Source of the DNA: a bacterium
Lineage (GTDB): Bacteria > Elusimicrobiota > Elusimicrobia > UBA1565 > UBA9628
NCBI GenBank assembly: GCA_021810245.1
Contig: JAJZJF010000005.1
Location: forward strand, 1 to 50,902
Length of the DNA stretch: 50,902 nucleotides
Reading direction: 5' to 3'
A program made the position numbers and the translations under genes. The notes under the pieces were generated by a model, which worked only from the letters and a program-made list of their open reading frames with translations, searched no databases and had not been told where the DNA came from. Shown here in pieces: positions 8,484-50,901 of the stretch (positions are counted from its first letter, which is position 1; every line of letters begins with the position of its first letter).

Positions 8484-8491
8484 ACTATTAT

Positions 8492-11085: not shown

Positions 11086-11088
11086 GTC

Positions 11089-11699: not shown

Positions 11700-11716
11700 T
11701 GACGTTCCCCCAATTT

Positions 11717-12562: not shown

Positions 12563-12585
12563 CGCTTCGCGTTTGGCCTTGGGCC

Positions 12586-12852
12586 TTACCAGTTTTTTGA
12601 GAGAAGCTCCTTGGCCGCGTCTAAATCCATCGTCAGCTCCCCAACCTTCCGCTTGAGCTTAAGATTCTCCTCTTCTAAACTTCGCAGTTTCCTGATGTCT
12701 GGAACTGTCATCCCAGCAAACTTCCTCCTCCAAGCGTAAAATGTATTGGGACTCACCCCATATTTCCGGCAGAGTTCTTCTGTCTTGGCTCCCGCCTCAG
12801 ATTCCTTCAGAATCATTACGATCTGTTCTTCCCTATATTTTCTTCTCGCCAT
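12586..12852 (-). CDS. IS3 transposase OrfA (HTH) with -1 frameshift site
   Basis: EEQIV.IL...ELCRKYGVS..TFY.W; A-AAA-AAC slippery heptamer at 12592-12598 just before the stop. Confidence 0.93.
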   Translation of the reverse strand: MARRKYREEQIVMILKESEAGAKTEELCRKYGVSPNTFYAWRRKFAGMTVPDIRKLRSLEEENLKLKRKVGELTMDLDAAKELLSKNW

Positions 12853-12947
12853 TTTTGGCCTCCTTGGTCTATCTTACCATCAGATAACCAATTCCTCCTG
12901 GCCTAGTTTTCGGGGGGAACGTCAGGCAAACTCTCTAGGCGTCCGCG

Positions 12948-13685: not shown

Positions 13686-13686
13686 T

Positions 13687-19471: not shown

Positions 19472-19474
19472 TGT

Positions 19475-20680: not shown

Positions 20681-20683
20681 GAT

Positions 20684-21757: not shown

Positions 21758-22322
21758 GCCCCATCTCTTTTAGAATCCGCTTCACGTCGCTGCGGTAGGT
21801 TTCCGAAACATCGTGCGTCATGCTCCAGCGCGCGGCCTTCTCCAGCTCATCTCCGGTGGGCCTGAGGTCCAACAAGTCCTGATAGTGCTTTCCACCCTGA
21901 TCGACCGCCGCGTAGAGCTTGAAATGCACCTGATCATACCGGCTGATAAAGCGCACCGTGAGCGCGCTTCCATAATTGCGCAACTCCGCGCGTCCAAGCA
22001 CTCCTTCGGGCAATCCAAAATCCAATGCCGAGGTCGGGCCCGGATTGATCCATCCGTCCTTGAGCCGGAAATCGCGCTCGACCTTCTTCGCGGCCTCGAT
22101 TAAATGCGGCGGCAGAGGATTGGCCGAACTCATGATCAGGCCGTCCGTGGGGCTCTTTGAAACAAGAGCCACAACATCCACGTCCTTGGTCGTCCTTGTG
22201 ACCAACCCCAAAGCATGGAGCGCCGCCCCGCCGCAGACGAGCATATCGACATGCGGCTTCTTGAGCGCGGCGAGCTGCTCGCCTAAAGCGGCGAGGGCCT
22301 GCTCGATTTCTTCTCTGTTCAT
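21732..22322 (-). CDS. DUF6036 / AbiEii-like nucleotidyltransferase
   Basis: VCGGAAL......R.T.DVDV and KL.A....K...DL motifs. Confidence 0.8.
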   Translation of the reverse strand: MNREEIEQALAALGEQLAALKKPHVDMLVCGGAALHALGLVTRTTKDVDVVALVSKSPTDGLIMSSANPLPPHLIEAAKKVERDFRLKDGWINPGPTSALDFGLPEGVLGRAELRNYGSALTVRFISRYDQVHFKLYAAVDQGGKHYQDLLDLRPTGDELEKAARWSMTHDVSETYRSDVKRILKEMGHGDVAQRL

Positions 22323-22336
22323 AAAATCCCTTAGGC

Positions 22337-23821: not shown

Positions 23822-24053
23822 ATTCTGTTTCCCATTCTCTTGAGCTTTCTCATTTATAAAGGATAGCACATAAAATTAATATTGTCAATATAGTATGAAT
23901 AAGCGAATAACTATAATTATAACTATTGTTTATCTATAAATATAATTTATAAAAACACATTCTAAATTTAATGTTCTAGTTTGCACTTTAAGAAAGTAAA
24001 AAGATCGCGCCTCGGAATCTTTCTAGAAAATTTCGCTTTTTAGGGGAAAAAAC

Positions 24054-37209: not shown

Positions 37210-37295
37210 GTTTTGGCGGAATATTTTTTAACGGAACAGCTCCGCTCTCGAAAAAATCCATTTTCAGAGGGAAAAATGTTAAGATAAACTTCAAC

Positions 37296-37372
37296 GGCGC
37301 GTTCGTCTAGCGGCCCAGGACGCTGCCCTCTCAAGGCAGAGACCACGGGTTCAAATCCCAACGACCCCGCCA
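37296..37372 (+). pseudogene. Chimeric tRNA-Glu pseudogene (att junction)
   Basis: First 64 nt identical to tRNA-Glu, then AACGACCCCGCCA; acceptor and T stems mispaired. Confidence 0.85.
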
Positions 37373-37474
37373 GTTTTCCCCCGACGAAGTTCTTATTTTT
37401 TAAGCGGAATTTCATAGAACTGTCCCTCCTGTTTGGATTGCTGGTTCTTGCTCCTTTTTGTCGCTTTTTGCTCG

Positions 37475-37497
37475 AAAACGCACACTCAAGCGCACAC
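37475..37497. repeat. Putative arm-type site (left end of island 2)
   Basis: AAAACGCACACTCAAGCGCACAC vs AAAACGCACACAAAAGCGCACAC at 50713-50735. Confidence 0.75.
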
Positions 37498-37509
37498 CCA
37501 TTTCGAGCG

Positions 37510-38568
37510 TCATTGAAGTTCTTCAATCCCATAAAAAATTGATTCCTTTTCATCAAAACGTTGCGCCCGATCAAGATAGTGCTGAATTGAATCTGGCGAA
37601 GAATGCCCCAGTTCCGTTTGCAACTGTCGAAAATGCTTGACAACCATGGCCCGGTGAGTGGCGAATGTCCCTCGGAGATCGTAGGACACAGCGGGTTTAT
37701 TGACTCCCGATTTCAGCAGAGCCTTCCTAAAGACACGCGCCAAATAAACTCCGGCATATGGATTCCCAGTTTTTGGATTGCAAAAGAAAAGCCCGCTCAC
37801 GGGGTGGGGAGTAAGACTTTTAAGCAATTCTCCAAAGCGCGGACCAAGTGATTTTATTTTGAGGTAACGGCGTTCATTCTTCCGCGAAGTTTTTTTCCGT
37901 TTTGAATTTAAAAGCCAAACTTCGCCCTTCTCCCAATCAATATTTTCTTTTCCAAATTGGTTCGCTTCTCCAGGCCGCGCTCCTGTCAAAATTCGGAATT
38001 CAAACAAAAATCGCAGATGTTCGGGCAAGCAAATGAGAAGTTTTTCGATTTCTTCTTTTGTAAGCCAAACCTCGGCGCGATTTCCATCCGCAAGACCGAG
38101 TTTCTTAATATCAGCAAGGACGTTACGGCGGATCAGTCCTAAATCCGCCGCATATTGAAGAACCACCCGCAAACATTTGAATTCTTTGAGCACGGTCCCT
38201 TCCGAGCAGCCTGTTTGTTTAACCCCCAGTTTTCCAGAAAGACGCGCGTGCTTAAAGTTTTCCCAATCCTCACGCATAATTTCGTGAAGATTCTTTGGTC
38301 CAAAAAATCTGCATAGCGATTTTACTGTCCAGATTTCACGTTTGCATGAGGAATCTTTCAGTCGATGCTTCGCATTCATTGTAAGATAACGCTCCTGAGC
38401 GAATCTCTCAAAAGTCATCGGCTCTTGGCCTGCCCCTAAATTCGATTCCGCCTGTTGCCCGCCAATTAGGAATTCAGTCAAGGCCGTAATCGGCACAACA
38501 CGGCGAATATAGTTTCCGCCATGTCGGTATTCAAAGCGCACAACATCTCCTTCTTTGACGACGTTCAT
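37510..38568 (-). CDS. int: Tyrosine integrase
   Basis: TGARPGE, SK, YDLRGT (variant of HxLR), LGH, HY. Confidence 0.9.
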   Translation of the reverse strand: MNVVKEGDVVRFEYRHGGNYIRRVVPITALTEFLIGGQQAESNLGAGQEPMTFERFAQERYLTMNAKHRLKDSSCKREIWTVKSLCRFFGPKNLHEIMREDWENFKHARLSGKLGVKQTGCSEGTVLKEFKCLRVVLQYAADLGLIRRNVLADIKKLGLADGNRAEVWLTKEEIEKLLICLPEHLRFLFEFRILTGARPGEANQFGKENIDWEKGEVWLLNSKRKKTSRKNERRYLKIKSLGPRFGELLKSLTPHPVSGLFFCNPKTGNPYAGVYLARVFRKALLKSGVNKPAVSYDLRGTFATHRAMVVKHFRQLQTELGHSSPDSIQHYLDRAQRFDEKESIFYGIEELQ

Positions 38569-38885
38569 TAAGTTTTTCCGTCCACTTGATTTTTTCTTGG
38601 ACGCCCCTTGTAGCTATATCGATGTTGGGAAATATATTTCTCAATTTCTCTTTCCTCAAAGAGACGACGATGTCCGAAATTCGTTGGGTGTAGCCCGAGC
38701 TCTTTCCAATTGTGCGCCAACCAAAAATAAGAATAACCCATTTTTTCCGCCGCCTCTTCCATAGTCAGTAGCCTTGATTTTTGAGAGGCTAATGATGGAA
38801 GCGAAGCTGGGAAAGGATAGGAACCGATGATCTTTCCAGGACACTGGCATGATGGGCAATGCAACGCGGGGGATGCAGCGCTCAC
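38568..38885 (-). CDS. Excisionase-like HTH_17 protein
   Basis: LLTMEEAAEKMGYS...FGHRRLFEEREIEKYI; N-terminal CPSCQC; coupled to int. Confidence 0.8.
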   Translation of the reverse strand: MSAASPALHCPSCQCPGKIIGSYPFPASLPSLASQKSRLLTMEEAAEKMGYSYFWLAHNWKELGLHPTNFGHRRLFEEREIEKYISQHRYSYKGRPRKNQVDGKT

Positions 38886-39070
38886 AAACCACTCCCCAAG
38901 AAATCATCGAACTTCTCCACATTGATCAGCCAAAGTCTGGGACCAAATTTCCGGCAGGGGAGAATCCCCAATCGGCACCAAGACTGAACCGTTTTTTTGC
39001 TGACCCCAAATTTTTGCGCCACATCGGACGGTTTGAGCCAGCGGCAAGGTTTGAATTTTCCTTTTTTCAT
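38882..39070 (-). CDS. Excisionase-like HTH_17 protein
   Basis: WLKPSDVAQKFGVSKKTVQSWCRLGILPCRKFG..W.I; probable start ATG 39070 behind GGAGG. Confidence 0.85.
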   Translation of the reverse strand: MKKGKFKPCRWLKPSDVAQKFGVSKKTVQSWCRLGILPCRKFGPRLWLINVEKFDDFLGSGL

Positions 39071-39076
39071 CACGCC

Positions 39077-39111
39077 CTCCATAGGGGCGCAATGCCTGCG
39101 CCCCTATGGAG
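39077..39111. promoter_or_regulatory. 15-bp perfect hairpin overlapping the RBS of the xis-like gene
   Basis: CTCCATAGGGGCGCA-ATGCC-TGCGCCCCTATGGAG. Confidence 0.7.
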
Positions 39112-39148
39112 ATATACAGCTGAAACAGCCGGATTCGATTTTTCATGT

Positions 39149-39496
39149 TCAATTGTCCGTACGCGCCGACACGCAACTCCAAATTCCGGAATTGTTTTTA
39201 TCCAAGGAACGTAACCCTAAATCCAAATCACGCAGCTCTATTCCCGGCGGTTGGTACAAGTTGAATTCCATGCTCCAATTCATGTCTCTGTCAATGAAAT
39301 TTAATACGTGAAAAGCTTTCCGACGAGCCTCCATGTAAATGGATTGAGCCTCTTTGAAACTTCTATTTCTCAAATCCACAATCGAAATAACCAACATGGA
39401 ATACGGCTTCATGATCATCATAATGGCCTCAGTTTTCAGAACCCTTATCAAACTCGATTTGAGGAAGCTGACGCGCGGCTTCTTCCCCGAATCCAC
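39149..39496 (-). CDS. Hypothetical protein (true start probably near 39420)
   Basis: Co-oriented ORF filling the gap between the DUF2130 and xis-like genes. Confidence 0.5.
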   Translation of the reverse strand: MDSGKKPRVSFLKSSLIRVLKTEAIMMIMKPYSMLVISIVDLRNRSFKEAQSIYMEARRKAFHVLNFIDRDMNWSMEFNLYQPPGIELRDLDLGLRSLDKNNSGIWSCVSARTDN

Positions 39497-40448
39497 CGGT
39501 CAAACTTCGATGAACACCGGCTTCCGCGCTCCAAAGGCCGCGCAATGCCTCGATGATCCGCCGATGCTCGACATTGACCTTTTTCTGAATGTCATTAAGC
39601 CCCTTGACCGCCGCGCTCAAGAATTTCGCCTTTTCTCTCAGATCGAGTTCATAACTGTCCGTCAGGTAAGACTGAATACGCGCGACGACCTCGCTGCCCG
39701 CCCCGTGAACCGCCTTGGCTTCGGCGAGCTTGATGAGCTTCTCGGCTCCATCCAAAATCATGGCCAGAGTGAAGGCAAGATTGCTTCTGTCGATGAGCCA
39801 AACTCTGACTCCGGCACGACGGCACGGCGCGAGGCCGAAACCCGCCGCCCTAAGCTCCTCATTTGGAAAAGCCGAGGAATTCGCCGCGATATAGCCAAAT
39901 TGCGCCTTGTGCCGCAACATGTCGCCCCAGATTTTTTCCGGCCAGTCTCGATTCCAATCGGCGCTCCATTTATCATCCACAATCATCGCGCCAATGCGAG
40001 TCCCGTTCCGATGAACGTGAATAATAACGTCCGTCCCCTTTTTGCCCTGCCCTACTTCTTCGATCTCGCACAAATCGAGCGGCAGATTTTTCTTGAGATA
40101 TTCCCCCAATCCCTCCTCGGCGATGATGCCTTGAACCTGAGCCGATCCAAGACTCAGCTTCGATTCCATTTCCTGTGCGCGAGCCTGAGCTTCCGAAAGT
40201 TTTTTTCGGATTTCCGATATTTCCAGGTCTTTCTTGGCGAATCTCTCTTGAAAGCCACGAATGATTTCGGTTTTGGCCCTGCCCACCGCGATTTTTATTT
40301 TCTCTTCCGCCGCCTCCGCAGCCTTAACTTGTTCTTCCTTCATAAGGCGATTGGCCTCTGCCCGGCCTTCCTCAGCGACCAAGTCCGCGACTTGTTCCTT
40401 AAGGTTTATTCTCGCTCCGCACTTCGGACACTCGATTTTCAAGTTCAT
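39429..40448 (-). CDS. DUF2130-like protein (Zn ribbon, coiled coil, nuclease-like C-terminus)
   Basis: IECPKCG..I.L, S.Q.QG..AE..L, I.EV..G.KG.D.I, DDK.S..W...W..K; start ATG 40448 behind GGAGGAG. Confidence 0.8.
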   Translation of the reverse strand: MNLKIECPKCGARINLKEQVADLVAEEGRAEANRLMKEEQVKAAEAAEEKIKIAVGRAKTEIIRGFQERFAKKDLEISEIRKKLSEAQARAQEMESKLSLGSAQVQGIIAEEGLGEYLKKNLPLDLCEIEEVGQGKKGTDVIIHVHRNGTRIGAMIVDDKWSADWNRDWPEKIWGDMLRHKAQFGYIAANSSAFPNEELRAAGFGLAPCRRAGVRVWLIDRSNLAFTLAMILDGAEKLIKLAEAKAVHGAGSEVVARIQSYLTDSYELDLREKAKFLSAAVKGLNDIQKKVNVEHRRIIEALRGLWSAEAGVHRSLTGGFGEEAARQLPQIEFDKGSEN

Positions 40449-40545
40449 GACATTCTCCTCCCCGTTTTTTCTTTTGAGTTTTTCGTAGCGTCTTTCATGC
40501 ACTAATTTTTTGTAGAATAATCAATAATGTAATGTGCTTACTTAT

Positions 40546-40579
40546 TATGTATTATACATCATAATACATACTTTGTCAA
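40546..40579 (-). promoter_or_regulatory. Consensus sigma70 promoter overlapped by a palindromic operator
   Basis: Minus strand TTGACA (40579-40574), 17 bp, TATAAT (40556-40551); IR TATGTATTAT-5-ATAATACATA (40546-40570). Confidence 0.85.
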
Positions 40580-40589
40580 GGGGAGGAGT

Positions 40590-40745
40590 ATGCGGCAACA
40601 TTCCGAAGAACAGATGATTCGTATTTCAGCGTCAATTCCTAAAAAATTGCATACCAAGGTTATCGAGCGAGCTCATGAAGAACGTCGATCCTTAAGCTCA
40701 GAAATCGTTATCTTGCTAGAGAAAGCTCTTTCTGGAGGGAACTGA
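40590..40745 (+). CDS. Arc-like ribbon-helix-helix repressor (51 aa, below ORF-track cutoff)
   Basis: MRQHSEEQMIRISASIPKKLHTKVIERAHEERRSLSSEIVILLEKALSGGN; SD GGAGGAG. Confidence 0.85.
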   Translation: MRQHSEEQMIRISASIPKKLHTKVIERAHEERRSLSSEIVILLEKALSGGN

Positions 40746-40873
40746 TTTTTTTCAATAATAATATCTATTGACGAAATACCCGGAAAAACGCACCGATGAG
40801 TGGCTGAGTTTATTATGTAATGCCGTTATGTTCATCCGTTTCAACCGAAACGCCAATGGGATAGCCCCGACTG

Positions 40874-41674
40874 AGCTTTCTTATCTTTAAACCCCGGCAG
40901 CGCGGGCGAATTCTTCTATCGTTTGAAAACGTTCCTTGGGGTCGGGCTTTAAACATCGGACAATAATTTCATTGAGACGAACATTGCAGTCGGGTAGAAT
41001 CTCGGTAAGAGGTTTAAAGACGGAGCGCTCCTTTTGCGCCAAAAAGTCCGGGCCGCGGAAGGGGATATCCCCGGTCAAGGCTTCGTAAATGGTCGCCCCC
41101 AAAGAGTAGATGTCCGAGCGCGCATCCCATTTCCCCAAGTGCTGCTCCGGCGACATATAAGCGAAAGTCCCGGCGGTTTCAACTCGGCTCACTCGGCTCA
41201 TCGCGTCCAGCGCCTGACCTGCGATGCCAAAATCCATCACTTTCGCTCCCTCCGCCTTCGTCACCATGATATTGGAGGGCTTTAAATCTCGATGAATCAC
41301 CTTTTTTGAGTGGGCAAAAGCCAGGGCTCTACAAACCCCGCCGAGCACAGACCCCATTTCAGCCGCCGCTAGTTTCCCGTGTTTGGCGATCATTTCCGCC
41401 AAGTTTTGGCCCTCGACATATTCAAAGACCAAATAGACTTCGTTGGATTCCTCTATGATTTCATGGATATCCACAATCGAAGGATGGCGAAGTTGGGCCA
41501 CAATTTTGGCTTCATCCAAAAAGCGAGCTTTCTCCTTGGGATTCATCGCCACCTCGGGACGCATCTTTTTTATCGCGACTCTGCGCCCCAATGAATGATC
41601 TTTTGCCTCATAGACCAATCCCATGCCTCCTTGACCGATTTGGCGCAAAAGCTCGTATTTCCCGGCGATCAGCG
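40874..41674. repeat. Kinase-module duplication, copy 1
   Basis: About 800 bp nearly identical to 43003-43803 (offset 2129). Confidence 0.95.
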
Positions 41675-42944
41675 CGGTGGATTGTCCCTCGCGGGTTTGG
41701 CCCGATGAGGCAACGGTCTCCGCGGTGGAGGGCGGTTTTGTCAATGACGATGGCGCGGTTGATGCGGGAGCGGCGGACGTGGCGGCACTTTGGGGCCGAT
41801 TCTTGCGCTTTAAAACAAATCTCCAAGTCACGAGGAGCAAGAATAAAGCGATTACAACCCCGATTTCTTCCATGGTCTTAATCCGCGCGGCTTCTTGATT
41901 GGCTTGTGCTTCGGCGGCCTTTTGGACTTGCGCCGCATGAGCCGCCGCTGCCGCTCGCGCGGCCTTATTAGAAATCCACACGCGCACATGCTTCGTCCCA
42001 TCCCCAGAGACGATTCGCTTGCCGTCTGGGGAATAACTTACGGAGCGGACATAACTCCCCACATCCTTGGACTTCCACAGCTCTTCACCGCTCATTGCGT
42101 CCCACACGCGCACATGGTTCGTATCATCTCCAGAGACGATTCGCTTGCCGTCCGGGGAATAAGTTACGGAGAAGACAGCGCCCACATCCTTGGACTTCCA
42201 CAACTCTTTCCCGCTCACTGCGTCCCACACGCGCACATGCTGCGTCTCATCCCCAGAAACGATTCGTTTGCCGTCGGGGGAATAACTTACGGAGTTGACA
42301 AAACTCCCCACATCCTTGGACTTCCACTGCTCTTCACCGCTCGCTGCGTCCCACACGCGCACATGGCCGCTATTACCATAATAACCATCCCCGGAGACGA
42401 TTCGCTTGCCGTCAGGGGAATAACTTACGGACCAGACATAACTCCCCACATCCTTGGACTTCCACTGCTCTTCACCGCTCGCTGCGTCCCACACACGCAC
42501 ATGGTCTGTCCAATCCCCAGAGACGATTCGCTTGCCGTCTGGGGAATAACTTACGGAGACGACAGTATTTCCCACATTCTTGGACTCCCACTGCTCTTCA
42601 CCGCTCGCTGCGTCCCACACGCGCACATGGCCGCCATTATCTCCAGAGACGATTCGCTTGCCGTCTGGGGAATAACTTACGGAGACGACAGTATTTCCCA
42701 CATTCTTGGACTCCCACTGCTCTTCACCGCTCGCTGCGTCCCACACGCGCACATGGCCGCCATTATCCCCAGAGACGATTCGCTTGCCGTCTGGGGAATA
42801 ACTTACGGAGACGACAAAATTCCCCACATTCGACGTCCACAGCTCTGTAAACCCTTGCGCGGAAGCGGGCCTTAGAGACGCAAATATAAGACAAAAAAGA
42901 ATAAAGTGAAAACAGATTCTCTTGAACGCCAGTTTGTTGAGCAT
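40887..42944 (-). CDS. Receptor-like Ser/Thr kinase: signal peptide, 7xWD40, TM, Hanks kinase
   Basis: SVSYSPDGKRIVSGD..HVRVWD repeats; TM IGVVIALFLLLVTW; GQGGMG, VAIK, HRDLKPSN, DFG, SPE. Confidence 0.93.
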   Translation of the reverse strand: MLNKLAFKRICFHFILFCLIFASLRPASAQGFTELWTSNVGNFVVSVSYSPDGKRIVSGDNGGHVRVWDAASGEEQWESKNVGNTVVSVSYSPDGKRIVSGDNGGHVRVWDAASGEEQWESKNVGNTVVSVSYSPDGKRIVSGDWTDHVRVWDAASGEEQWKSKDVGSYVWSVSYSPDGKRIVSGDGYYGNSGHVRVWDAASGEEQWKSKDVGSFVNSVSYSPDGKRIVSGDETQHVRVWDAVSGKELWKSKDVGAVFSVTYSPDGKRIVSGDDTNHVRVWDAMSGEELWKSKDVGSYVRSVSYSPDGKRIVSGDGTKHVRVWISNKAARAAAAAHAAQVQKAAEAQANQEAARIKTMEEIGVVIALFLLLVTWRFVLKRKNRPQSAATSAAPASTAPSSLTKPPSTAETVASSGQTREGQSTALIAGKYELLRQIGQGGMGLVYEAKDHSLGRRVAIKKMRPEVAMNPKEKARFLDEAKIVAQLRHPSIVDIHEIIEESNEVYLVFEYVEGQNLAEMIAKHGKLAAAEMGSVLGGVCRALAFAHSKKVIHRDLKPSNIMVTKAEGAKVMDFGIAGQALDAMSRVSRVETAGTFAYMSPEQHLGKWDARSDIYSLGATIYEALTGDIPFRGPDFLAQKERSVFKPLTEILPDCNVRLNEIIVRCLKPDPKERFQTIEEFARAAGV
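41980..42845 (-). repeat. Seven highly identical ~126-bp WD40-coding repeats
   Basis: Period 126 bp (e.g. 42541 vs 42667); one unit has a 12-bp insertion, one a 3-bp deletion. Confidence 0.95.
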
Positions 42945-43002
42945 TAGGACAATTTTATAACATGTGGAAACACTCCTAAAATTTTCTTACAAGATAATTT
43001 TC

Positions 43003-43803
43003 AGCTTTCTTATCTTTAAACCCCGGCGGCGCGGGCGAATTCTTCTATCGTTTGAAAACGTTCCTTGGGATCGGGCTTTAAACATCGGACAATAATTTCA
43101 TTGAGACGAACATTGCAGTCGGGTAGAATCTCGGTAAGAGGTTTAAAGACGGAGCGCTCCTTTTGCGCCAAAAAGTCCGGGCCGCGGAAGGGGATATCCC
43201 CGGTCAAGGCTTCGTAAATGGTCGCCCCCAAAGAGTAGATGTCCGAGCGCGCATCCCATTTCCCCAAGTGCTGCTCCGGCGACATATAAGCGAAAGTCCC
43301 GGCGGTTTCAACTCGGCTCACTCGGCTCATCGCGTCCAGCGCCTGACCTGCGATGCCAAAATCCATCACTTTCGCTCCCTCCGCCTTCGTCACCATGATA
43401 TTGGAGGGCTTTAAATCTCGATGAATCACCTTTTTTGAGTGGGCAAAAGCCAGGGCTCTACAAACCCCGCCGAGCACAGACCCCATTTCAGCCGCCGCTA
43501 GTTTCCCGTGTTTGGCGATCATTTCCGCCAAGTTTTGGCCCTCGACATATTCAAAGACCAAATAGACTTCGTTGGATTCCTCTATGATTTCATGGATATC
43601 CACAATCGAAGGATGGCGAAGTTGGGCCACAATTTTGGCTTCATCCAAAAAGCGAGCTTTCTCCTTGGGATTCATCGCCACCTCGGGACGCATCTTTTTT
43701 ATCGCGACTCTGCGCCCCAATGAATGATCTTTTGCCTCATAGACCAATCCCATGCCTCCTTGGCCGATTTGGCGCAAAAGCTCGTATTTGCCGGCTATGA
43801 GCG
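43003..43803. repeat. Kinase-module duplication, copy 2
   Basis: Nearly identical to 40874-41674. Confidence 0.95.
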
Positions 43804-44320
43804 TCTTGTTTTCGGACACGGTAGGTTTTTGTATTTCCGACACGATACAGGTTTGCTTGGGCTCTGGGTTTGGATTAGAGGGGACTTGAAGGACGGATGC
43901 GCCACCCTTAGTTGGAAGCCATTTCCTAGCCTCGTCTCGATTGATTTCTTCTGCGCAGCGATAAGCTCTATACATACCCAAAATCCAGAAGATGAGTATG
44001 ACTAGCAAGAATAGTGGTACGAAAAAGATGTATATGGCCGACACCAATAATTTTAGACTGGAGTTGGGTAGTATGGCTAACAGGAATGCTAGCCCTAAGA
44101 TGGGTATGGCTAGCAGGAATGGTAACATCAGGAACTTAAGGCCCATAAAAATCCCATCTCTGGCTTTTCCTAAATAAATATGCCCCAGTCCGGGCCAGAG
44201 TGAAGATAAGAGTGCCGCAATGAGAGGTATTTTTAAGTTTTTCTCATAGCCACATTTTAGACACACCGTCGCTCTATCTGAGGCTTCTGTTTTGCATTCG
44301 GGACATTGAAGCATCGGCAT
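43016..44320 (-). CDS. Membrane Ser/Thr kinase: Zn ribbon, TM2-like multi-TM domain, Hanks kinase
   Basis: CPEC..CLKCG; AALLS.LWPGLGHIYLG; kinase protein sequence identical to that of 40887-42944. Confidence 0.92.
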   Translation of the reverse strand: MPMLQCPECKTEASDRATVCLKCGYEKNLKIPLIAALLSSLWPGLGHIYLGKARDGIFMGLKFLMLPFLLAIPILGLAFLLAILPNSSLKLLVSAIYIFFVPLFLLVILIFWILGMYRAYRCAEEINRDEARKWLPTKGGASVLQVPSNPNPEPKQTCIVSEIQKPTVSENKTLIAGKYELLRQIGQGGMGLVYEAKDHSLGRRVAIKKMRPEVAMNPKEKARFLDEAKIVAQLRHPSIVDIHEIIEESNEVYLVFEYVEGQNLAEMIAKHGKLAAAEMGSVLGGVCRALAFAHSKKVIHRDLKPSNIMVTKAEGAKVMDFGIAGQALDAMSRVSRVETAGTFAYMSPEQHLGKWDARSDIYSLGATIYEALTGDIPFRGPDFLAQKERSVFKPLTEILPDCNVRLNEIIVRCLKPDPKERFQTIEEFARAAGV

Positions 44321-44445
44321 AAAACACCTTCCTATTTCTCCTCATTGGTGCGTCTTTTTCCCAACTTGATGTTACCAAGCCGGGGAAATCGCCTCAACTT
44401 TTTTCAACTATTATCGTGACATGCTCCCTTGACGCGCTCATGATT

Positions 44446-45168
44446 TTATTGGCAGAGAATCTCAATATTACCATCATTTATAAGTTCATAGACGCCGATT
44501 TGCAATTTTTGGATGAGTTTTTTGAGCTTGGGACGGAGATTGATTTTATTTACTTCCTTTGCTTCCTTCAGCGCAAGGCAACCTTCTGGTTTCCCCTGAA
44601 GAAGAACCGCTTTATAAATCTCGGACTGGGGATTTGTGTTAAAGTCGCATCGAAATTTTTCAGGGTCAAGTTGCAGATAATAGGTCTCAATCTCAAGGAC
44701 AGTTTTTAGAAGCGTATCACTCGTGTTGTTCAACTTGAATTCAATCAGGTAAAAGCTATTCTTTGATTCATTGTAGGTCACCAAATCGATTTTCCCGGCT
44801 CTGTCTCCACGTATATTTTTTAGAGGAACCTGATATTCTATCACCTTGCCTAGCGTGCCTAGTTTGGCCTTAGTATTGAACAGGCATCCTGCATACTGCT
44901 CTTCCTTCCTATTACTTTTGGTTTTCTGGAACTTTGCCCCCAGGTGAGGATTATAAGTCTCTTCCCGCGAGATGGTTCCTATTCCTTTCAGCCACCCGGA
45001 GTTCTTTTTCTCCAACAGCAGTCCTGCAATAATCTCGGAAGAGAGTTCGTTAGAATCATTCGTTCTACCGCTCCAATTGACACAGTCTGCCTTATAGATG
45101 GTTTCAGGTTTTTTGATGCTCTCCGCTATCTTGTTCTGCACCTGCTTACAATTATATTTTTTAGGCAT
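44446..45168 (-). CDS. PD-(D/E)XK nuclease-like hypothetical protein
   Basis: EE...EYQVPL...GKIDLV...LIEFK...LEIETY; low GC; SD AGGGAGG. Confidence 0.65.
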   Translation of the reverse strand: MPKKYNCKQVQNKIAESIKKPETIYKADCVNWSGRTNDSNELSSEIIAGLLLEKKNSGWLKGIGTISREETYNPHLGAKFQKTKSNRKEEQYAGCLFNTKAKLGTLGKVIEYQVPLKNIRGDRAGKIDLVTYNESKNSFYLIEFKLNNTSDTLLKTVLEIETYYLQLDPEKFRCDFNTNPQSEIYKAVLLQGKPEGCLALKEAKEVNKINLRPKLKKLIQKLQIGVYELINDGNIEILCQ

Positions 45169-45220
45169 ATTTCCTCCCTTATTTTATTTGTTTTTACGGT
45201 GATGAAGGGGAGATTCATTT

Positions 45221-46798
45221 TCATTTAACCCCTCTCAGTTTCTCCGTGAGAAATTTGGATATCCGAAACAAGACGCGGCTTGTGGATTTTGTTTTGGCTT
45301 GATGGGACCTCATGGCGCTGCTCTTGGCAGCGGGGCCATCGGAATCAAAAACGGGTTCGCCGTTGGGAAGGGCGTAGAGAGAAAGCGCGCTTTGCGCCCA
45401 TCCTTGGTAGAGGTCATAGTCGCCGACTTTTTGGCTGCTATCCTGGATGGAGACCAGGAGCAGATAGTCCGCATGAAGATCCACGGCTTTTTGAATCCTG
45501 GACTTTAAATTCATCGCGCGGCCCGGTATTTCCATTCCGCTAAACCCCTGGGAAACCAAGACTCTTTTAATGGAGGTGGCCAGTTTCTCTCGCAGGTTCT
45601 CATCTGGAGCCAACGCCGCAAAGGCGACGGAACGCGCCTTAATGAGGTCCACCGTGCATTGGGGGGCCGAGAAAAAACGGGGAATAGAGCCTGTTTTAAA
45701 AAGGGCGGCTCCGTCCACCTCGACTTGAAGAGTGGCGCGAGATTGGGAAGGGTCTATGCGCACGATGGGAATCTGGGCCAAGCCGCGGGAGTCCGTCATG
45801 AGCGCATGTCTCGCGAGTGTCCCGCGTCCTTCTGAAAAATCAGACTTAAGAGAAAGACCCTTGATGGGAACGTGAATTCCGCCGCGAGCGTCTTTGTAGG
45901 AAGCCTCAATTTGCGGGCTCTGATTAATCTTCCCCTCAGCGCTATAGGTGATACGGTTGGGATGAGCGGCAAGCGAAATATTCTCAAGAATGCCGCTGAT
46001 TTTTCCGGCCAGAAAACTTTGCATTTCCTGTTTGCGTTTGTCCATGCGCATTTCGACGGGGCTTTCTCCCCAATAACCGGAAAGAGTGTTTTGAGCCAAG
46101 ATCAAGTCCCGCAAACCGCTCATCACGCGCTTAGATGCCAGTTCTTTTTCGCCCTCTTCCGCGAGGCCTTCAACCCGCTCCTTTTTGAGGGAGAGCTGCT
46201 TCTCCGCTATCTCGTGGTATTTCTTTTGAGGAACGGAAAGGAGAACATCCACAAATCCCTTCTGAGGATAATCCAGAAATTTTTTGATCGCAAGATAAAG
46301 ACTGTTTTCCGGATCGGCCAAAACAAGATGCGTTCTCAAATCTATAGCGTCTTCAATTTGCTCTTTCTCCACATGAGAGGAACCGGAAGCGTTATAGCTG
46401 TATCGACTTTGAGATTGAGAGGTGATGGTCACTTGGATGCGCTTAGCCAGCCGCTCAAGGGCCAAGCTATAGGCTTTGTCATAAGCCTCCTCGGCATGCC
46501 CTTTGTGGATTTCCGCCGAGGCGTCTGCGGCATAGTAGTCCGGATCATGCTCCAGCTTCTCAATCAAGGCTCCAATGTCGGGAGGATTCTGAACGGGAGC
46601 CGCGAGAGGTTTGACGCCGGGTTTAGCTGTAGTTTGAGAGGGGGAAAAATTGGAAAGATGCTCTTGGGCTTGTTGCGCCTGATTTTCAAGAGAGGATTCG
46701 GAATCGGAAGGAGATGTATTTTGGGATTTCAGATGAGGAGTTATCATCAAACACAAGGCCAAGGCGCAAAAAACAGCGAGACGTTTTTTATTGGTCAT
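45221..46798 (-). CDS. Secreted LPP20-like domain protein
   Basis: Start ATG 46798 (ATGA overlap); signal peptide MTNKKRLAVFCALALCL; 'A...A...AL..LA..I.V.I.S' LPP20-like helix-strand pattern. Confidence 0.6.
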   Translation of the reverse strand: MTNKKRLAVFCALALCLMITPHLKSQNTSPSDSESSLENQAQQAQEHLSNFSPSQTTAKPGVKPLAAPVQNPPDIGALIEKLEHDPDYYAADASAEIHKGHAEEAYDKAYSLALERLAKRIQVTITSQSQSRYSYNASGSSHVEKEQIEDAIDLRTHLVLADPENSLYLAIKKFLDYPQKGFVDVLLSVPQKKYHEIAEKQLSLKKERVEGLAEEGEKELASKRVMSGLRDLILAQNTLSGYWGESPVEMRMDKRKQEMQSFLAGKISGILENISLAAHPNRITYSAEGKINQSPQIEASYKDARGGIHVPIKGLSLKSDFSEGRGTLARHALMTDSRGLAQIPIVRIDPSQSRATLQVEVDGAALFKTGSIPRFFSAPQCTVDLIKARSVAFAALAPDENLREKLATSIKRVLVSQGFSGMEIPGRAMNLKSRIQKAVDLHADYLLLVSIQDSSQKVGDYDLYQGWAQSALSLYALPNGEPVFDSDGPAAKSSAMRSHQAKTKSTSRVLFRISKFLTEKLRGVK

Positions 46799-48609
46799 GC
46801 TTTCTCCCTGGCCCGATAAGAGAGACCTTTGTATTCCAAGGTGGCGCCGGGATAAAGAACTTGGCACTTCCCGGGAGTGATAAAAAGGAGAGCGGCCTCT
46901 GAAACAACGAAGCGGCAACGACCGCCATTGCGGGGCATAAGTCCAAGATCGCTTGCATCGCAAGGGATTTCCTGAATCGGGCAAAAAACGTCGTGCTTTT
47001 TGCTGGAAAGGACGAGGCCCAGCAGCTGCCGCGCCGTTTGCGGCTGTTTGACCGTCAAATTAACCGGCGCGGAATCTGAGGCCAATCGAGTTTCTAAAGT
47101 CGGCGCGGCGCCTGAAAATAAACCAATCTGATACTCAACGGCGCCACCGAGATTGAGGATGTCGCCATCTTCCAGGCGCGAACGCGTCAGCGCTTCTCCA
47201 CGGTGTTTGGTTCCATTGGTGCTGTCCAAATCCTCGGCAACTACAGAATTTCCCATCAGACTGATTTTGAGGTGCTTGCGGCTGATCCGCTCGTCATCAA
47301 TCTCGATATCGGTCTCAATGCGGCCTATTGTCAAAACATCGGCTTTAATAATGATAATTTTCTTCCCCACTTTCTCTGGGATAAGAAAGAGACGATGGGT
47401 TTTGCGTGAGTCCTCCAGATCGCGCCTGAGCGCTCCGGCGCGGGAATTGACGGGATTGAGGCTGAGAGCTTTCTCGATATTATCCTGCGCCGCGCGGACA
47501 TCGTTTTCGGATAGATTTCTATGCGCCGCTTCAATCAAATCATTGGAACGCGCAATTTTATCTTGCGCCAAGCGGGCAACTTCTCCTTCAAGCCGATTAT
47601 AGATGGCTTTGAGGCCTGGATGGTAGGGAAGAAGCGTTTTTAAACGATCGCCATTGTCGATATCTTCAGGGATAAGCGTTTTCCCTGATGACTGCGACTC
47701 GCGCAGCGCCAGATCAAGTTTTTTATATTCAACCTGAGCTTGTTGAAATTTCTGGGGATCTCCACCGGTCCAATCCATCAGCCTTTGGCGAAAGGCATAG
47801 AGATCGTTGTTGTCTGGCAACACCCACAGGCAGGAATCAACGAGGCGCAAGGCGGCCATGACATCCCCATTTCCCCAATAGCGCTCAAGGCTTTCAAAGG
47901 CCGATGGAAGTCCCTGAACCATCCGGCGGCGTTTCAACGTGAAATAAAATTCCTGTCCAATGAGAAAAATAAAACAGCAGGCGAAAAGGGTGGAAGAGGT
48001 TTTAAACCCTGAACGGACATTGCGGCGTGTCTGAAGAAAACGGCTTGAGAGCCCCGGCGGAGTCAATGCGCTGGCGGCTGAAATAAGAATTTTCCCACGA
48101 GCGTCTAAAATGCGAATTTCGGCCTCGTAATCGAGGAGCATTCCAGGCACTGGGCGTAAACGGGCTTGAGACACATAGACGCTTTTTAATTTCCCCGCTT
48201 CGACGATCCGGAGAACCGCCTCCGGATCCACCAATCCCTTTTTCATAAGGACATTGACTTGTGAGACTAATTGGGACATGTCCGCCGCCGGCGCGAGCAA
48301 TCGCCAACCGGGATAGCCGATGAGCGTGGCATTGAGGTCGTCTTTAAGCGCCTGCAGATTGGGGATGTCATCGGAATTTCTAGCGGAGATATTGATCTCG
48401 TCAATGGAGGCCAGCCCTCCGTGCAATTTTAGATGAGCCGCTTGTTTTTGAATGCTGCGCGAAAGCGCCTGAAGGGCTGGTCCCATGGGAATAAAGGGCG
48501 GCGGCGGAACCGATAGATTTTGCCAGGCCCAGGCGGATAAAATAAGAAAAACCGCCATTGCCGACATAAGAATTTTACGGCGCTTGCCGTAAATATCGGG
48601 CAAAGACAT
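46795..48609 (-). CDS. Membrane FHA-domain protein with TPR-like region
   Basis: Two TMs; TIGR, ISRKH, DLDSTNGT, L.DGD FHA motifs. Confidence 0.88.
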   Translation of the reverse strand: MSLPDIYGKRRKILMSAMAVFLILSAWAWQNLSVPPPPFIPMGPALQALSRSIQKQAAHLKLHGGLASIDEINISARNSDDIPNLQALKDDLNATLIGYPGWRLLAPAADMSQLVSQVNVLMKKGLVDPEAVLRIVEAGKLKSVYVSQARLRPVPGMLLDYEAEIRILDARGKILISAASALTPPGLSSRFLQTRRNVRSGFKTSSTLFACCFIFLIGQEFYFTLKRRRMVQGLPSAFESLERYWGNGDVMAALRLVDSCLWVLPDNNDLYAFRQRLMDWTGGDPQKFQQAQVEYKKLDLALRESQSSGKTLIPEDIDNGDRLKTLLPYHPGLKAIYNRLEGEVARLAQDKIARSNDLIEAAHRNLSENDVRAAQDNIEKALSLNPVNSRAGALRRDLEDSRKTHRLFLIPEKVGKKIIIIKADVLTIGRIETDIEIDDERISRKHLKISLMGNSVVAEDLDSTNGTKHRGEALTRSRLEDGDILNLGGAVEYQIGLFSGAAPTLETRLASDSAPVNLTVKQPQTARQLLGLVLSSKKHDVFCPIQEIPCDASDLGLMPRNGGRCRFVVSEAALLFITPGKCQVLYPGATLEYKGLSYRAREKA

Positions 48610-48670
48610 TCTACACCCTCCCGTCGCTTTTAAATGTCAGTTCAGCGGTATTAATAGAATCCTGACAAGT

Positions 48671-48698
48671 AGTGTAACAGGAATTGTTGATTTGTCAA
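48671..48698 (-). promoter_or_regulatory. Candidate promoter of the FHA/kinase cassette
   Basis: Minus strand TTGACA, 16 bp, TACACT, flanked by the TGACAA/TTGTCA inverted repeat (48663-48697). Confidence 0.45.
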
Positions 48699-49133
48699 TA
48701 TTCGGCGAGCCGACACCATTTCGCCATGAGCGTATGAATCGAGGACAGTCTCCCTAAATCCCATGAGGCCAAACGGCGCGGGAATTAAGTAACTTGTCAC
48801 CGTAAGGCGTCGCAAAATAATCCTGATTCAGGCTGGATGACACCTAAATTTGAATAAAACCGCTATTTAAACGTCCAATCAACCGAACAAACTCGCCTTT
48901 TTTATTGTTTCTCAACGGAGAGCAATCTGTTATTTCTAATGGTAATGTGTGGATTTTAAGGTCATTTTAGGCTTTTAAGGCGTTTTAGGCGTCAAAATAT
49001 CCACGAGACCGAACAGAATTTGTGGGGGTAACCGAACAGCTTCTAAAACCTGGGAGGGTTGTCGGCAATCTGAAATTGGTCTTGCGGGGAATGCGGGCGT
49101 CCGCTAAACGACAGAGAGAGGCGAAACCGGGTA

Positions 49134-50696
49134 TTACGTCGCGGACAGCATTCGCTTGGAATTAAGCCGCAGTCTGCCATTTTTCTTTTCAATAATGAAC
49201 CGAGTCAAATCCTCGGCTCTGAATCGACGTCCCTTGCCGATTTCAACGGAAGGCAATATTCCTTGGGCGGCCAGCCGGGAAATCATGCTAGGGTCTTTGT
49301 ATCCGAGAATAGCCGCGGCTTCTTCAGCCGTGAAAAGAGCGGCGAGTGCAGTCACTTCGTTTTTGAGAAACACGGTGCGCGAACCGATTTTAAAGGGATG
49401 AAGATGCTCAGCCTTAATCCACCCCACGTAAAGCTGCGTCCGATGAATTCTCAACTTGGCGCAGGTCTCGGCCACGCTGTAGAATAAATCTTTCGCCGAA
49501 TCCGAATTCAAATTCGTCTCAAGCGCGGCGTCTAATCCCTCCAGTCTCGCCTCGTCCAACTCAAGACCGCTCAACTTTAAGGCATGACGGAAAAGTTCCA
49601 AACGGATCGCTTTGTCCGGCCATGCTTGAGCGGGAAGCGTTTTCGCGGGGCCGCCGCTTCCAAAGCGGCGCCCATAATCTTCAAGCAAATCTTTTTCCTT
49701 GAAGTTGTAGTACGCCAGAGTCTCCTCGACATTCATATGCCGCGCCAGTTTTTGAACTCTCTTGGCATCCAGGCCGGATTCAACCCATTCGCTAATCCTT
49801 GTGTGGCGCAGATAATGAGTGCGCCCGACATATTCATGAGGCAAGCCCGCTTCTTGCGCCATCGGAATATAGACTTGATCCCGGTAGACCGCGCTGCTGA
49901 GAGCTTTGCCTTTTTTATTGCAGAAGATGACTCTGCCGACTACTTTTTTTGATTTTGGCGTCAAAACCTCCTCCGCCTCTATATTTTTTTGCCCCAGATA
50001 TTTATCGCGCGCGTCCAAATACCGTTTAAGATATCCGCAACCCAAAGGAGTCAAATAGGCCGTATCCTCAAACCCTGCGGCACGGTCTTTTGATTCACGG
50101 ATTACGATGGGAACAATCCCGCCGGGGTTCTGCCTAGACCAGAGAATGTCCTTTTCCGATAGGCGCGCGACTTCGGAAGCGCGCAAAGCCGCGTCATACT
50201 GAACCGCGATCATCGCCTTATCTCGAAGGTATAAGAATCTTCCCTCATCATTGAGACTAGACAATCGTTTTTCATCTATACCTAAAAGTCCATCGCGCTC
50301 ATCCGAACTTAAACGACGATATTCTTCATCTTTGATCGGCGCGGGAGCTTTGACGCCCCTCGCGATGTTTTCTGGAATCAAGCCCTGGCTATGCGCGGCT
50401 TTGAACAGACCTTTTAGATTCATCAGCAAAACTCGAATAGTCCGAGTTTTTATTTCACCCGCAGCTTGCCGCAGATCCAGGCTTTTCCGCAGATCCTGGA
50501 AGTCCTCGACATTAAAATCGCTGAGACTTTTCAGGACTCGCCCGGGGTGGGCTTTAACGATCTCGCGACAAAGCGCCGCGAAAGCGTTGCGATAGCCGTC
50601 TGCCGTCCCTGGACTTAAGGGTTCGCCGCTCCGCTGGTGGCGATAGTCAGAAATCACTTGCTCAAGCTGGGTTGAAAGGCTCTTTTGCGTTTTCAT
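49134..50696 (-). CDS. Tyrosine recombinase with two C-terminal excisionase-like HTH domains
   Basis: ALRASE, SK, HYLRHT, ARH, YY; then YSVAETCAKL.. and FTAEEAAAILG..G.LP...G..RRF; start ATG 50696 behind GGAGG. Confidence 0.88.
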   Translation of the reverse strand: MKTQKSLSTQLEQVISDYRHQRSGEPLSPGTADGYRNAFAALCREIVKAHPGRVLKSLSDFNVEDFQDLRKSLDLRQAAGEIKTRTIRVLLMNLKGLFKAAHSQGLIPENIARGVKAPAPIKDEEYRRLSSDERDGLLGIDEKRLSSLNDEGRFLYLRDKAMIAVQYDAALRASEVARLSEKDILWSRQNPGGIVPIVIRESKDRAAGFEDTAYLTPLGCGYLKRYLDARDKYLGQKNIEAEEVLTPKSKKVVGRVIFCNKKGKALSSAVYRDQVYIPMAQEAGLPHEYVGRTHYLRHTRISEWVESGLDAKRVQKLARHMNVEETLAYYNFKEKDLLEDYGRRFGSGGPAKTLPAQAWPDKAIRLELFRHALKLSGLELDEARLEGLDAALETNLNSDSAKDLFYSVAETCAKLRIHRTQLYVGWIKAEHLHPFKIGSRTVFLKNEVTALAALFTAEEAAAILGYKDPSMISRLAAQGILPSVEIGKGRRFRAEDLTRFIIEKKNGRLRLNSKRMLSAT

Positions 50697-50712
50697 AGAG
50701 CCTCCGGAGACA

Positions 50713-50735
50713 AAAACGCACACAAAAGCGCACAC
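50713..50735. repeat. Putative arm-type site (right end of island 2)
   Basis: Matches 37475-37497. Confidence 0.75.
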
Positions 50736-50824
50736 TTAAAAATGGCTATTTTATGGGAAGCGCATTCCCCGTATTCTCGAAAAAATCCATTTTCAGAGGG
50801 AAAAATGTTAAGATAAACTTCAAC

Positions 50825-50901
50825 GGCGCGTTCGTCTAGCGGCCCAGGACGCTGCCCTCTCAAGGCAGAGACCACGGGTTCAAATCCCGTACGCGCCACC
50901 A
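50825..50901 (+). tRNA. tRNA-Glu(CTC)
   Basis: GGCGCGT..CTGCC-CT-CTC-AA-GGCAG..ACGGG-TTCAAAT-CCCGT-ACGCGCC-A-CCA; extended -10 TGTTAAGAT at 50806-50814. Confidence 0.97.

Follow-up and report, generated by a model that had tools for sequence, protein, structure and literature searches.

Near-identical WD40 blades with divergent predicted contact residues in a putative receptor kinase on an Elusimicrobiota island

How can the blades of a beta-propeller remain almost identical in DNA and still differ from one another in the few residues that are expected to face a ligand? The question is raised by gene A, an open reading frame of 685 amino acids on the minus strand of a 50,902-nt stretch of DNA from a bacterium of the phylum Elusimicrobiota (lineage UBA9628; GenBank assembly GCA_021810245.1, contig JAJZJF010000005.1, positions 1 to 50,902), which was analyzed as a whole and is hereafter called the window. 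Gene A encodes, in this order, a signal peptide, seven WD40 units, an Ala-rich helix, one transmembrane (TM) helix, a Ser/Thr/Pro-rich linker, and a C-terminal Hanks-type kinase. The reading that we hold to be probable, with real reservations, is that it specifies a type-I membrane kinase with a periplasmic propeller of young repeats, in which the scaffold has been homogenized and the contact residues have been selected apart, and that the gene is island cargo and part of a modular subfamily.

The repeats themselves are readily delimited. Tandem Repeats Finder returned a single array (42000-42829, period 126, 6.5 copies, 85% matches, score 1110), and a repeat search of the window gave spacings of 123, 126, 138, 126, and 126 nt between copies. 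Inside gene A, we recognize seven WD40 units of 42, 42, 42, 46, 42, 41, and 42 residues that together span 41964-42854. The first-pass annotation of the window, made from the letters without database searches, had described near-identical repeats of about 126 bp with change in only a few codons, which is borne out by the seven units and the period of 126; it had also located the array correctly, although its limits (41980-42845) were slightly too narrow. The gene and its units are as follows:

40887..42944, minus strand: gene A, 685 aa (open reading frame, Pfam, hydropathy and motifs)
41964..42854, minus strand: WD40 array of seven units (repeat search, codon table, AlphaFold2 model)
42729-42854, minus strand: unit U1
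42603-42728, minus strand: unit U2
42477-42602, minus strand: unit U3
42339-42476, minus strand: unit U4
42213-42338, minus strand: unit U5
42090-42212, minus strand: unit U6
41964-42089, minus strand: unit U7

Variation between the units is concentrated in alignment columns 12, 13, 15, 35, 36, and 37, which are near saturation, and U4 carries in addition a four-codon GYYG insertion. The residues that the first-pass annotation had read after VG (NF/NT/NT/SY/SF/A/SY), before SV (V/V/V/W/N/F/R), and after SGD (NGG/NGG/WTD/GYYGNSG/ETQ/DTN/GTK) recur exactly in our codon table. Between units, DNA identity is 88-99% outside the six variable columns versus 22-89% inside them. Thus, U1 and U7 differ at 1 of 72 scaffold nucleotides versus 13 of the 18 in the six variable codons, and U2 and U3 at 2 of 108 versus 7 of 18. 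Hypergeometric P values are below 0.005 in 20 of the 21 unit pairs, the exception being U1-U2, and are descriptive, the six columns having been picked after seeing the data. A second class of positions was fixed by the fold beforehand: columns 9-15, which take in the D-A loop and the first part of strand A, and columns 31-37, which take in the B-C loop. By the Nei-Gojobori method, applied to each of the 21 unit pairs, nonsynonymous (dN) and synonymous (dS) divergence in these loops amount to 0.544 and 0.269, a ratio of about 2.0, as against 0.029 and 0.159, a ratio of 0.19, in the columns outside them, figures that we read for direction and rough size only. When distinct states are counted, the loops hold 19 nonsynonymous and 3 synonymous ones, versus 6 and 10 elsewhere (Fisher P 0.0045). 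In the six codons taken on their own, dN (1.15) is greater than both dS at the same codons (0.31) and dS elsewhere (0.17). The mean pairwise amino acid identity of the units is 0.74 (range 0.57-0.93), a value that counts the non-repeat ends of U1 and U7 and is distinct from the WDSP-based measure of Hu et al.

On the plus strand, an antisense open reading frame of 326 codons spans the entire array (41895-42875). Most likely, the repeat itself gave rise to it, because a single antisense frame free of stops has been copied seven times.

Where do the variable residues lie in the protein? The Pfam WD40 profile (PF00400) matches gene A in seven stretches, at 133.8 bits and E 9.7e-40 (the cut-off is 27 bits). 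An AlphaFold2 model of residues 30-345, run on the single sequence, has a mean pLDDT of 92.2 and a pTM of 0.88, and contains 28 strands, that is, seven blades of four, plus a C-terminal helix. The top Foldseek match is the WD40 domain of PkwA (5YZV; TM 0.88/0.96, rmsd 1.6 A, 32% identity), followed by others that include the seven-bladed designer protein WRAP-T and WDR5, and the best match of the array to the sequence of a solved protein is the highly repetitive 2YMU of Nostoc punctiforme (E 2.4e-60). As modeled, the array is a closed seven-bladed WD40 propeller. In this model, the loop that leads into strand A contains columns 12-13, and column 15 is the second residue of that strand, while columns 35-37 fill the B-C turn, a hairpin that the GYYG insertion lengthens in U4.

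These places can be compared with published position rules. Top-face ligand-contact hotspots of WD40 propellers are R1 and R1-2, defined by the motif (V/L/I)-R1-R2-(V/L/I), and D-1, which precedes the Asp of the tetrad (Wu 2012). Under this rule, the stretch V14-x15-S16-V17 makes column 15 R1 and column 13 R1-2, and, by alignment to 2YMU, the Asp position falls on column 36 and D-1 on column 35. The fungal NWD repeats offer a second reference: there, codons 7, 9, 25, and 27 are under positive selection, and the pairs 7/9 (d-a loop) and 25/27 (b-c turn) each enclose a conserved codon, 8 and 26, respectively (Paoletti 2007, PMC1805685). Columns 13/15, around V14, and 35/37, around column 36, match these two pairs in exact spacing, so that the kinship of pattern with fungal HET-E/NWD receptors noted in the first-pass annotation holds at four variable columns. 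By model and position rules taken together, the variable residues are at canonical top-face ligand-contact positions. The DHSW tetrad itself is absent, as the Asp position (column 36) reads G/G/T/S/T/T/T and the His position (column 10) is V. This hydrogen-bond tetrad is common but not obligatory in WD40 propellers.

How did such an array arise? U1-U3 all have N at columns 9 and 12 and V at column 15 and are 98% alike, whereas D at column 9 and K at column 6 are common to U4-U7; the most divergent unit is U6, with 88-93% scaffold identity. Because scaffold identities are uneven (88-99%) and the units fall into the subgroups U1-U3 and U4-U7, the array does not fit a single burst of amplification followed by drift, and its sequence suggests a stepwise duplication of units. 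U2 combines the front variable residues of U3 (NT and V) with the back ones of U1 (NGG) and has a private synonymous GGA at column 29, a makeup that one unequal crossover between U3 and U1, followed by one substitution, would give. More generally, a near-identical scaffold with near-saturated contact codons needs either homogenization in which differences at these codons are protected or a very fast replacement of the contact codons. Both require selection, which therefore appears to act on the contact codons.

It could be objected that gene A is just an ordinary young propeller, in which a single blade was recently amplified and then drifted, the variable positions being merely the least constrained ones. 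Near-identical blades that stem from recent independent amplifications have indeed been reported for most propeller lineages (Pereira and Lupas 2022), some 20% of the WD40 proteins of prokaryotes have been inferred to be young (Hu 2017, PMC5587647), and the best solved match, 2YMU, is itself highly repetitive. However, neutral drift cannot yield, in one and the same unit pair, the 13 changes out of 18 nucleotides in six codons with 1 out of 72 in the scaffold that separate U1 from U7, nor does it agree with a dN in the six codons that exceeds dS both there and elsewhere; the uneven scaffold identities and the two subgroups are a further misfit, and we regard this explanation as unlikely. We are far more skeptical of a diversity-generating retroelement, or a similar process of targeted mutagenesis, that would rewrite the variable codons. 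The genome does contain two reverse-transcriptase matches, but these are on other contigs (C96 and C94); a second copy of the repeat DNA, which would serve as template repeat, was not found in the genome, and the changes are not specific to adenine (column 15, for example, reads GTC/TGG/AAC/TTC/CGC). We have rejected this origin as largely refuted and grant it next to no credence.

The remainder of gene A predicts a propeller on one side of a membrane and a kinase on the other. Its features are the following:

42858..42944, minus strand: predicted Sec signal peptide, residues 1-29 (Kyte-Doolittle hydropathy and cleavage motif in the translation)
41805..41864, minus strand: single TM helix, residues 361-380 (hydropathy peak 2.22)
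40923..41657, minus strand: kinase domain of gene A, residues 430-674 (Pfam Pkinase 1e-54, and motifs)

The signal segment (residues 4-29 by Kyte-Doolittle) has a basic n-region and a hydrophobic core and is followed by ASA, with the cut predicted before Q. Besides it, residues 361-380 are the sole hydrophobic segment of gene A, and they are directly followed, on the kinase side, by KRKNR. The kinase has the full set of Hanks motifs (GQGGMGLV, VAIK, HRDLKPSN, DFG, SPE, and DIYSLG) and, judged by profile and motifs, is an intact Hanks-type (eukaryote-like) Ser/Thr kinase. The predicted topology is, therefore, an extracytoplasmic WD40 part and a cytoplasmic kinase with one TM helix between them. 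Also encoded in the window are TolB and two proteins that resemble YbgF and OmpA/Pal, respectively, the named relatives of TolB being from Elusimicrobia or Elusimicrobiota; on this account, the host is a diderm, and the predicted ectodomain of gene A would be periplasmic.

Is the array still being reshuffled? In a generator of the HET-E type, unequal crossing-over or conversion would rearrange the units within a population, cells would differ in unit order, number, and specificity, and the receptor would serve an immune-like recognition of non-self or invaders. The coincidence of the hypervariable positions with those of the fungal HIC WD40 repeats, the resemblance of U2 to a recombinant with the front of U3 and the back of U1, and the location of gene A on a mobile island, with nuclease-like proteins of no known family next to it, would all suit such a generator. 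A protein search with gene A, in which 8,000 candidates were scored and 6,964 had E values at or below 0.001, yielded one further piece of evidence: among the matches listed (the best 120 of 6,964), only P0001 (643 aa), from a different short-read contig of 17.3 kb, is above 50% identity. P0001 equals gene A minus exactly 42 residues, which can be removed anywhere between residues 44 and 103; it thus has one unit fewer in the U1-U3 stretch, and its six other units are identical to those of gene A. A single unequal crossover within U1-U3 would produce this protein, but the collapse of these near-identical units during assembly gives the same sequence, and both a real six-unit allele and a short-read assembly collapse are possible. 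No allelic variation at the variable codons was seen between P0001 and gene A in the six units that they have in common. No orthologue of gene A was found in five other genomes of the same genus, in which matches were at the level of the kinase only (E about 1e-63), and no close relative in a scan of metagenome contigs (8 loci, the best at 40% identity); a scan of viral contigs with gene A gave 0 loci.

The same data bear on a more prosaic explanation, namely that the number, order, or content of the units is an artefact of the short-read assembly of a repeat. The genome is a metagenome bin of 152 contigs assembled from short reads, another assembly contains the six-unit version, and Illumina assemblies of HIC WD40 arrays are documented to be unreliable, such conserved arrays not being recoverable from them (Ament-Velasquez 2025, PMC12222747). 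Five sequencing runs from two studies are listed for the locus, none of them of RNA, which carries no weight either way on expression, and we compared the Logan contigs of four of them, all from one mine-drainage study. In all four, contigs break inside the array, at the repeats, and at the duplicated kinase described below, and none supplies a joint between units. Nevertheless, contig pieces of 426, 283, 124, and 272 nt, across U7-U4 and the flank of U1, match the window with 0 other letters. The groups of variable codons are about 60 nt apart, so that reads of ordinary length link neighboring groups, and the synonymous GGA of U2 at column 29 stands between variable codons of the U3 type and variable codons of the U1 type; furthermore, the reading frame is intact and was modeled as a closed propeller of seven blades. 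The seven-unit form is supported by the private marker of U2 and by the exact contig pieces, and only the copy number within U1-U3 is really at risk of being artefactual. We consider an artefact improbable as an account of the array, even more so than simple drift after amplification.

The depth of coverage adds a rough indication: an 83-nt Logan contig common to two units has 1.3-1.6x the depth of the flank, compared with about 1.6-1.8x for a piece of the kinase that is present in two copies, ratios that may be read in favor of a HET-E-like generator but are too rough to be decisive. Against it stand the identity of the six units shared by P0001 and gene A, the restriction of the four runs with the locus to one study, with contigs that break at the repeats, and the fact that gene A has a single propeller of seven units, with no pool of paralogous arrays in the genome for exchange. 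We therefore grant present-day reshuffling of this kind a minor, though not negligible, chance. Accordingly, of the diversifying recognition module wired to a kinase that the first-pass annotation had proposed, the extracytoplasmic location and the fusion to a kinase stand, as far as hydropathy and motifs go, whereas for ongoing shuffling no evidence was obtained, the one other sequence, P0001, having identical units and lacking one that may have been lost to a collapse.

Gene A does not stand alone: it is part of a string of genes between two direct repeats, the features of which are listed here from left to right.

37246..37359, plus strand: left 114-nt direct repeat, made of 50 nt upstream and the first 64 nt of tRNA-Glu, without the matching 3' end
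37510..38568, minus strand: tyrosine recombinase (integrase) at the left end (Phage_integrase 5.3e-14; phrog_1 2.7e-37)
39429..40502, minus strand: zinc-ribbon and coiled-coil protein, 357 aa, DUF2130-like by language-model features only
43016..44320, minus strand: gene B, 434 aa, with a zinc ribbon, hydrophobic membrane segments, and a kinase module (open reading frame, Pfam, hydropathy)
44446..45168, minus strand: protein of 240 aa and unrecognized family (without a match in Pfam, NCBIfam, PADLOC, or PHROGs)
45221..46798, minus strand: secreted 525-aa protein of no Pfam or NCBIfam family (N-terminal hydrophobic segment)
46795..48609, minus strand: FHA-domain membrane protein, 604 aa (FHA 7.3e-14)
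49134..50735, minus strand: integrase with a C-terminal HTH_17 at the right end (Pfam, PHROGs)
50775..50888, plus strand: right 114-nt direct repeat, 100% identical to the left copy and overlapping tRNA-Glu
50825-50901: intact tRNA-Glu(ctc) at the right end of the island

The 114-nt direct repeats with their part of tRNA-Glu, the two integrases, and the empty site in a sister species of the same genus (G005) together identify this region as an integrative island. In G005, the acyltransferase gene of the flank is directly followed by the intact tRNA-Glu, and the flank is 88% identical in nucleotides (locus L026). By these sequence features, gene A is cargo of a 13.4-kb integrative island at tRNA-Glu (37246-50888), on which the cargo genes, namely those for the FHA protein, the secreted 525-aa protein, the 240-aa protein, gene B, gene A, and the DUF2130-like protein, are all on the minus strand. 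In another genome (G003), the flank gene and a tRNA-like stretch are separated by about 2.4 kb, which may represent another insertion into this site. For the proteins of the island other than the kinases, PADLOC, PHROGs, and NCBIfam yielded no specific assignment; the right-hand integrase is the only one of them with a PADLOC match, a weak one to mad1 (6.3e-06) over its HTH_17 region. Two leads come from the Atlas: the 357-aa protein scores 0.95 to DUF2130 clusters and has no Pfam match at E 0.01, and the model of the 240-aa protein resembles a cluster of the PGN_0703 family with a putative restriction-endonuclease fold (TM 0.73 by query). The 604-aa protein has a predicted hydrophobic segment at residues 207-225 and a cytoplasmic FHA domain, which binds phosphothreonine, at residues 427-488. 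The family of the secreted 525-aa protein was found in 9 of the 401 genomes of the phylum that were searched, this one included, and is scattered through the Elusimicrobiota; a kinase lies within 5 kb of a member in three of the five genomes checked, in addition to the window and to a locus described below (L025). The members are about 500 aa long, and loci of the genomes G297, G396, and G100 are among those that encode one. When the 525-aa protein served as query in a protein search, no sequence but its own was recovered, the word filter having missed the 49% identical relative in L025.

Elsewhere in the window, a tRNA-Ala (7332-7407) is followed by a tyrosine recombinase (7416-8483), and genes for type I restriction-modification (HsdR, 13687-16767; HsdM, 22337-23869) enclose four open reading frames of unknown family (16716-21757); the stretch 7332-23869 is probably a second island. 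Between 2700 and 6629, tryptophanase, a match to the deoxyhypusine-synthase-like 1,9-bis(guanidino)-5-aza-nonane synthase (E 4e-171), and agmatinase stand together, an ordinary metabolic context.

Within the tRNA-Glu island, genes A and B share their kinase:

40874..41660, minus strand: kinase module, copy 1, in gene A (787 nt, including 13 nt past the stop codon)
43003..43789, minus strand: kinase module, copy 2, in gene B (787 nt)

The two copies differ by 3 mismatches in 787 nt (99.6% identical) and the N-terminal halves of the two proteins are unrelated, a twin module whose sequence points to a recent duplication or conversion of this single domain. To the question of whether other sensors are found on such kinases, the relatives give an answer. 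From 150 listed representatives, we picked 15 in which a C-terminal kinase is the single match, with identities of about 49-98% (P0121, which is among them, is gene B of the window itself); the others are mostly multi-kinase or N-terminal-kinase proteins and were not scanned. The N-terminal parts of these 15 contain a PQQ-like propeller, ankyrin repeats, a TPM domain, an NHL propeller, a WD40 fragment, or no known domain. On sequence, gene A thus belongs to a subfamily that has a conserved C-terminal kinase and interchangeable N-terminal sensor modules. One relative, at locus L007 in a genome of the same taxonomic order, has a signal peptide, a divergent WD40 part, a TM helix, and a kinase, in that sequence, with 33% identity to gene A, so that this architecture predates the repetitive array.

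The scan of genome contigs with gene B gave a single locus, L025, in a metagenome-assembled genome that is probably of the same family as the genome of the window, by its match to G322. It encodes a homologue of the secreted 525-aa protein (149-1381, 49% identity), then two kinases in tandem (2148-6061), the one with a zinc ribbon and a PQQ-like propeller (kinase 69% identical) and the other with ankyrin repeats. Both have a C-terminal kinase and no membrane helix, which indicates that the subfamily also has cytoplasmic sensors. We considered the PQQ-like propeller of L025 as a second case of near-identical repeats and rejected it, its two units of equal length being only about 61% alike.

Two observations on the Logan contigs concern the DNA next to the kinase genes. 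Single contigs in four of the four runs match the window only in the 55 nt between 40807 and 40861 and continue into unrelated sequence on both sides; no second copy of this intergenic stretch was found in the genome. Moreover, contigs of three of the four runs have an extra T at 44354, between the 240-aa gene and gene B, 34 nt upstream of the start of gene B.

What, then, might gene A do? In the reading that we favor, recent duplications of units and homogenization between them would keep the scaffold DNA of the blades near identical, while selection would keep or drive apart the contact residues of each blade (R1-2, R1, and D-1, with their neighbors in the D-A loop and the B-C turn), so that a symmetric scaffold would come to bear a binding face that is asymmetric. 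In the periplasm, a ligand, which is most likely a protein or a peptide, would bind the top face of the propeller; binding may change the oligomerization or the activity of the kinase across the single helix, and the resulting phosphothreonine could be read by the FHA membrane protein of the same minus-strand gene string. Several points weigh against this proposal. The signal peptide and the topology were predicted from hydropathy and the positive-inside rule only, and the placement on the top face from secondary structure, WD40 topology, and published position rules, not from measured solvent exposure. The dN/dS values are derived from 21 non-independent pairs of seven short units, and the ratio of loops to scaffold is inflated if homogenization lowers the dS of the scaffold. 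In addition, the window was obtained from a short-read metagenome assembly, and arrays of this type are known to be mis-assembled from Illumina data. Finally, the link to the FHA protein is drawn from gene neighborhood only.

One may go further and view the whole element as a portable island for periplasmic surveillance, the receptor kinase of which would sense invading proteins, its face being retuned by duplication, loss, or conversion of units, and would signal through the FHA protein to the nuclease-like proteins of the island. Phage ejection proteins, bacteriocins, and contact-delivered effectors that cross the periplasm are candidate invaders. If true, bacteria would have in it a counterpart of NLR-type innate immunity that is extracytoplasmic and works through a kinase, but we judge it a long shot. 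In a comparison with known anti-phage kinase systems (PD-T4-6, Mad6, and PglW), the PADLOC matches of gene A are limited to its kinase domain (for example, PD-T4-6, 1.2e-80, residues 424-682), and any Hanks kinase would score in this way.

How does gene A compare with known systems? PkwA of Thermomonospora curvata (5YZV) likewise combines, in a bacterial protein, a Ser/Thr kinase with a WD40 domain of seven blades. Its kinase is N-terminal and its WD40 domain C-terminal, it is not known to have a signal peptide, and its blades are less alike than those of gene A. The closest parallel for the repeats is found in the 305 Highly-Repetitive WD40 proteins, half of them bacterial, described by Hu (2017, PMC5587647), which were defined by an internal identity of at least 0.7 and are often linked to Ser/Thr kinases, and in which most sites are conserved and hotspots are diverse. 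Gene A resembles these proteins, and 2YMU among them, in its near-identical blades and in the diversity at predicted top-face hotspots, the repeats of 2YMU varying mainly at the R1 position. It differs from them in that its array is a single seven-bladed domain, exported by a signal peptide and joined to a C-terminal kinase, and in that it lacks the DHSW tetrad, for which Hu et al. report a high density in Highly-Repetitive proteins. More broadly, propellers have been shown to be continually amplified from single blades, in a cycle of amplification and differentiation (Pereira and Lupas 2022).

With HET-E, HET-D, and the NWD proteins, gene A shares WD40 units of 42 residues that are more than 80% identical in DNA and hypervariable codon pairs on either side of a conserved residue, both in the d-a loop and in the b-c turn, with an excess of nonsynonymous change (PMC1805685; PMC12222747). 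The fungal receptors, however, are cytosolic and act through NLR oligomerization, and their arrays have at least 10 units that exchange with about 70 paralogous units, whereas gene A is predicted to be extracytoplasmic, has a kinase as output, and consists of one array of seven units. Neither a NACHT (STAND NTPase) nor a HET domain was found in gene A, NACHT being absent among the matches listed (25 of 41 families), and upstream of the repeats there is only the signal peptide of 29 residues. Because it has no NACHT domain, gene A is not an NLR; by analogy, it resembles the sensor of HET-E in the evolution of its repeats, without membership of the family.

As to receptor kinases, single-pass membrane Ser/Thr kinases with periplasmic C-terminal WD40 or TPR arrays have been described in Planctomycetota (2024, PMC11032199), and they have in common with gene A a cytoplasmic Hanks kinase, one membrane helix, and a periplasmic WD40 sensor. 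Their order is kinase, TM helix, WD40, often with long arrays, whereas that of gene A is reversed (signal peptide, WD40, TM helix, kinase) and occurs on a mobile island of the Elusimicrobiota. PknD of Mycobacterium tuberculosis (1RWI/1RWL) is also a receptor Ser/Thr kinase with a symmetric extracellular beta-propeller sensor, a highly symmetric six-bladed NHL propeller whose central "cup" has been proposed as the ligand site (Good et al. 2004, as cited in PMC3601408); its kinase is N-terminal, its propeller is not a seven-bladed WD40, and it is not reported to be on a mobile island.

In calling gene A a bacterial variable receptor, the first-pass annotation hence overstated the novelty, since Highly-Repetitive WD40 proteins with variable hotspots in bacteria, periplasmic WD40 sensors on kinases, and the symmetric propeller of PknD are already in print. 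New here, as far as the literature searched extends, are the reversed, type-I domain order, in which the kinase is C-terminal, the location on an island of the Elusimicrobiota, and the twin kinase module. The twin module, together with the varied sensors on related kinases, suggests that islands of this kind recombine modules for sensing with modules for phosphorylation. Gene A opens no long-standing question; it is a small gene with seven clearly labeled blades, in which the ligands of periplasmic WD40 sensors could be sought with relative ease, and it would extend the highly repetitive WD40 sensors to the Elusimicrobiota and to a eukaryote-like, type-I receptor-kinase topology. If our reading is true, it would also offer a compact natural case of a bacterial receptor kinase in which selection has made the binding face asymmetric while the scaffold is symmetric.

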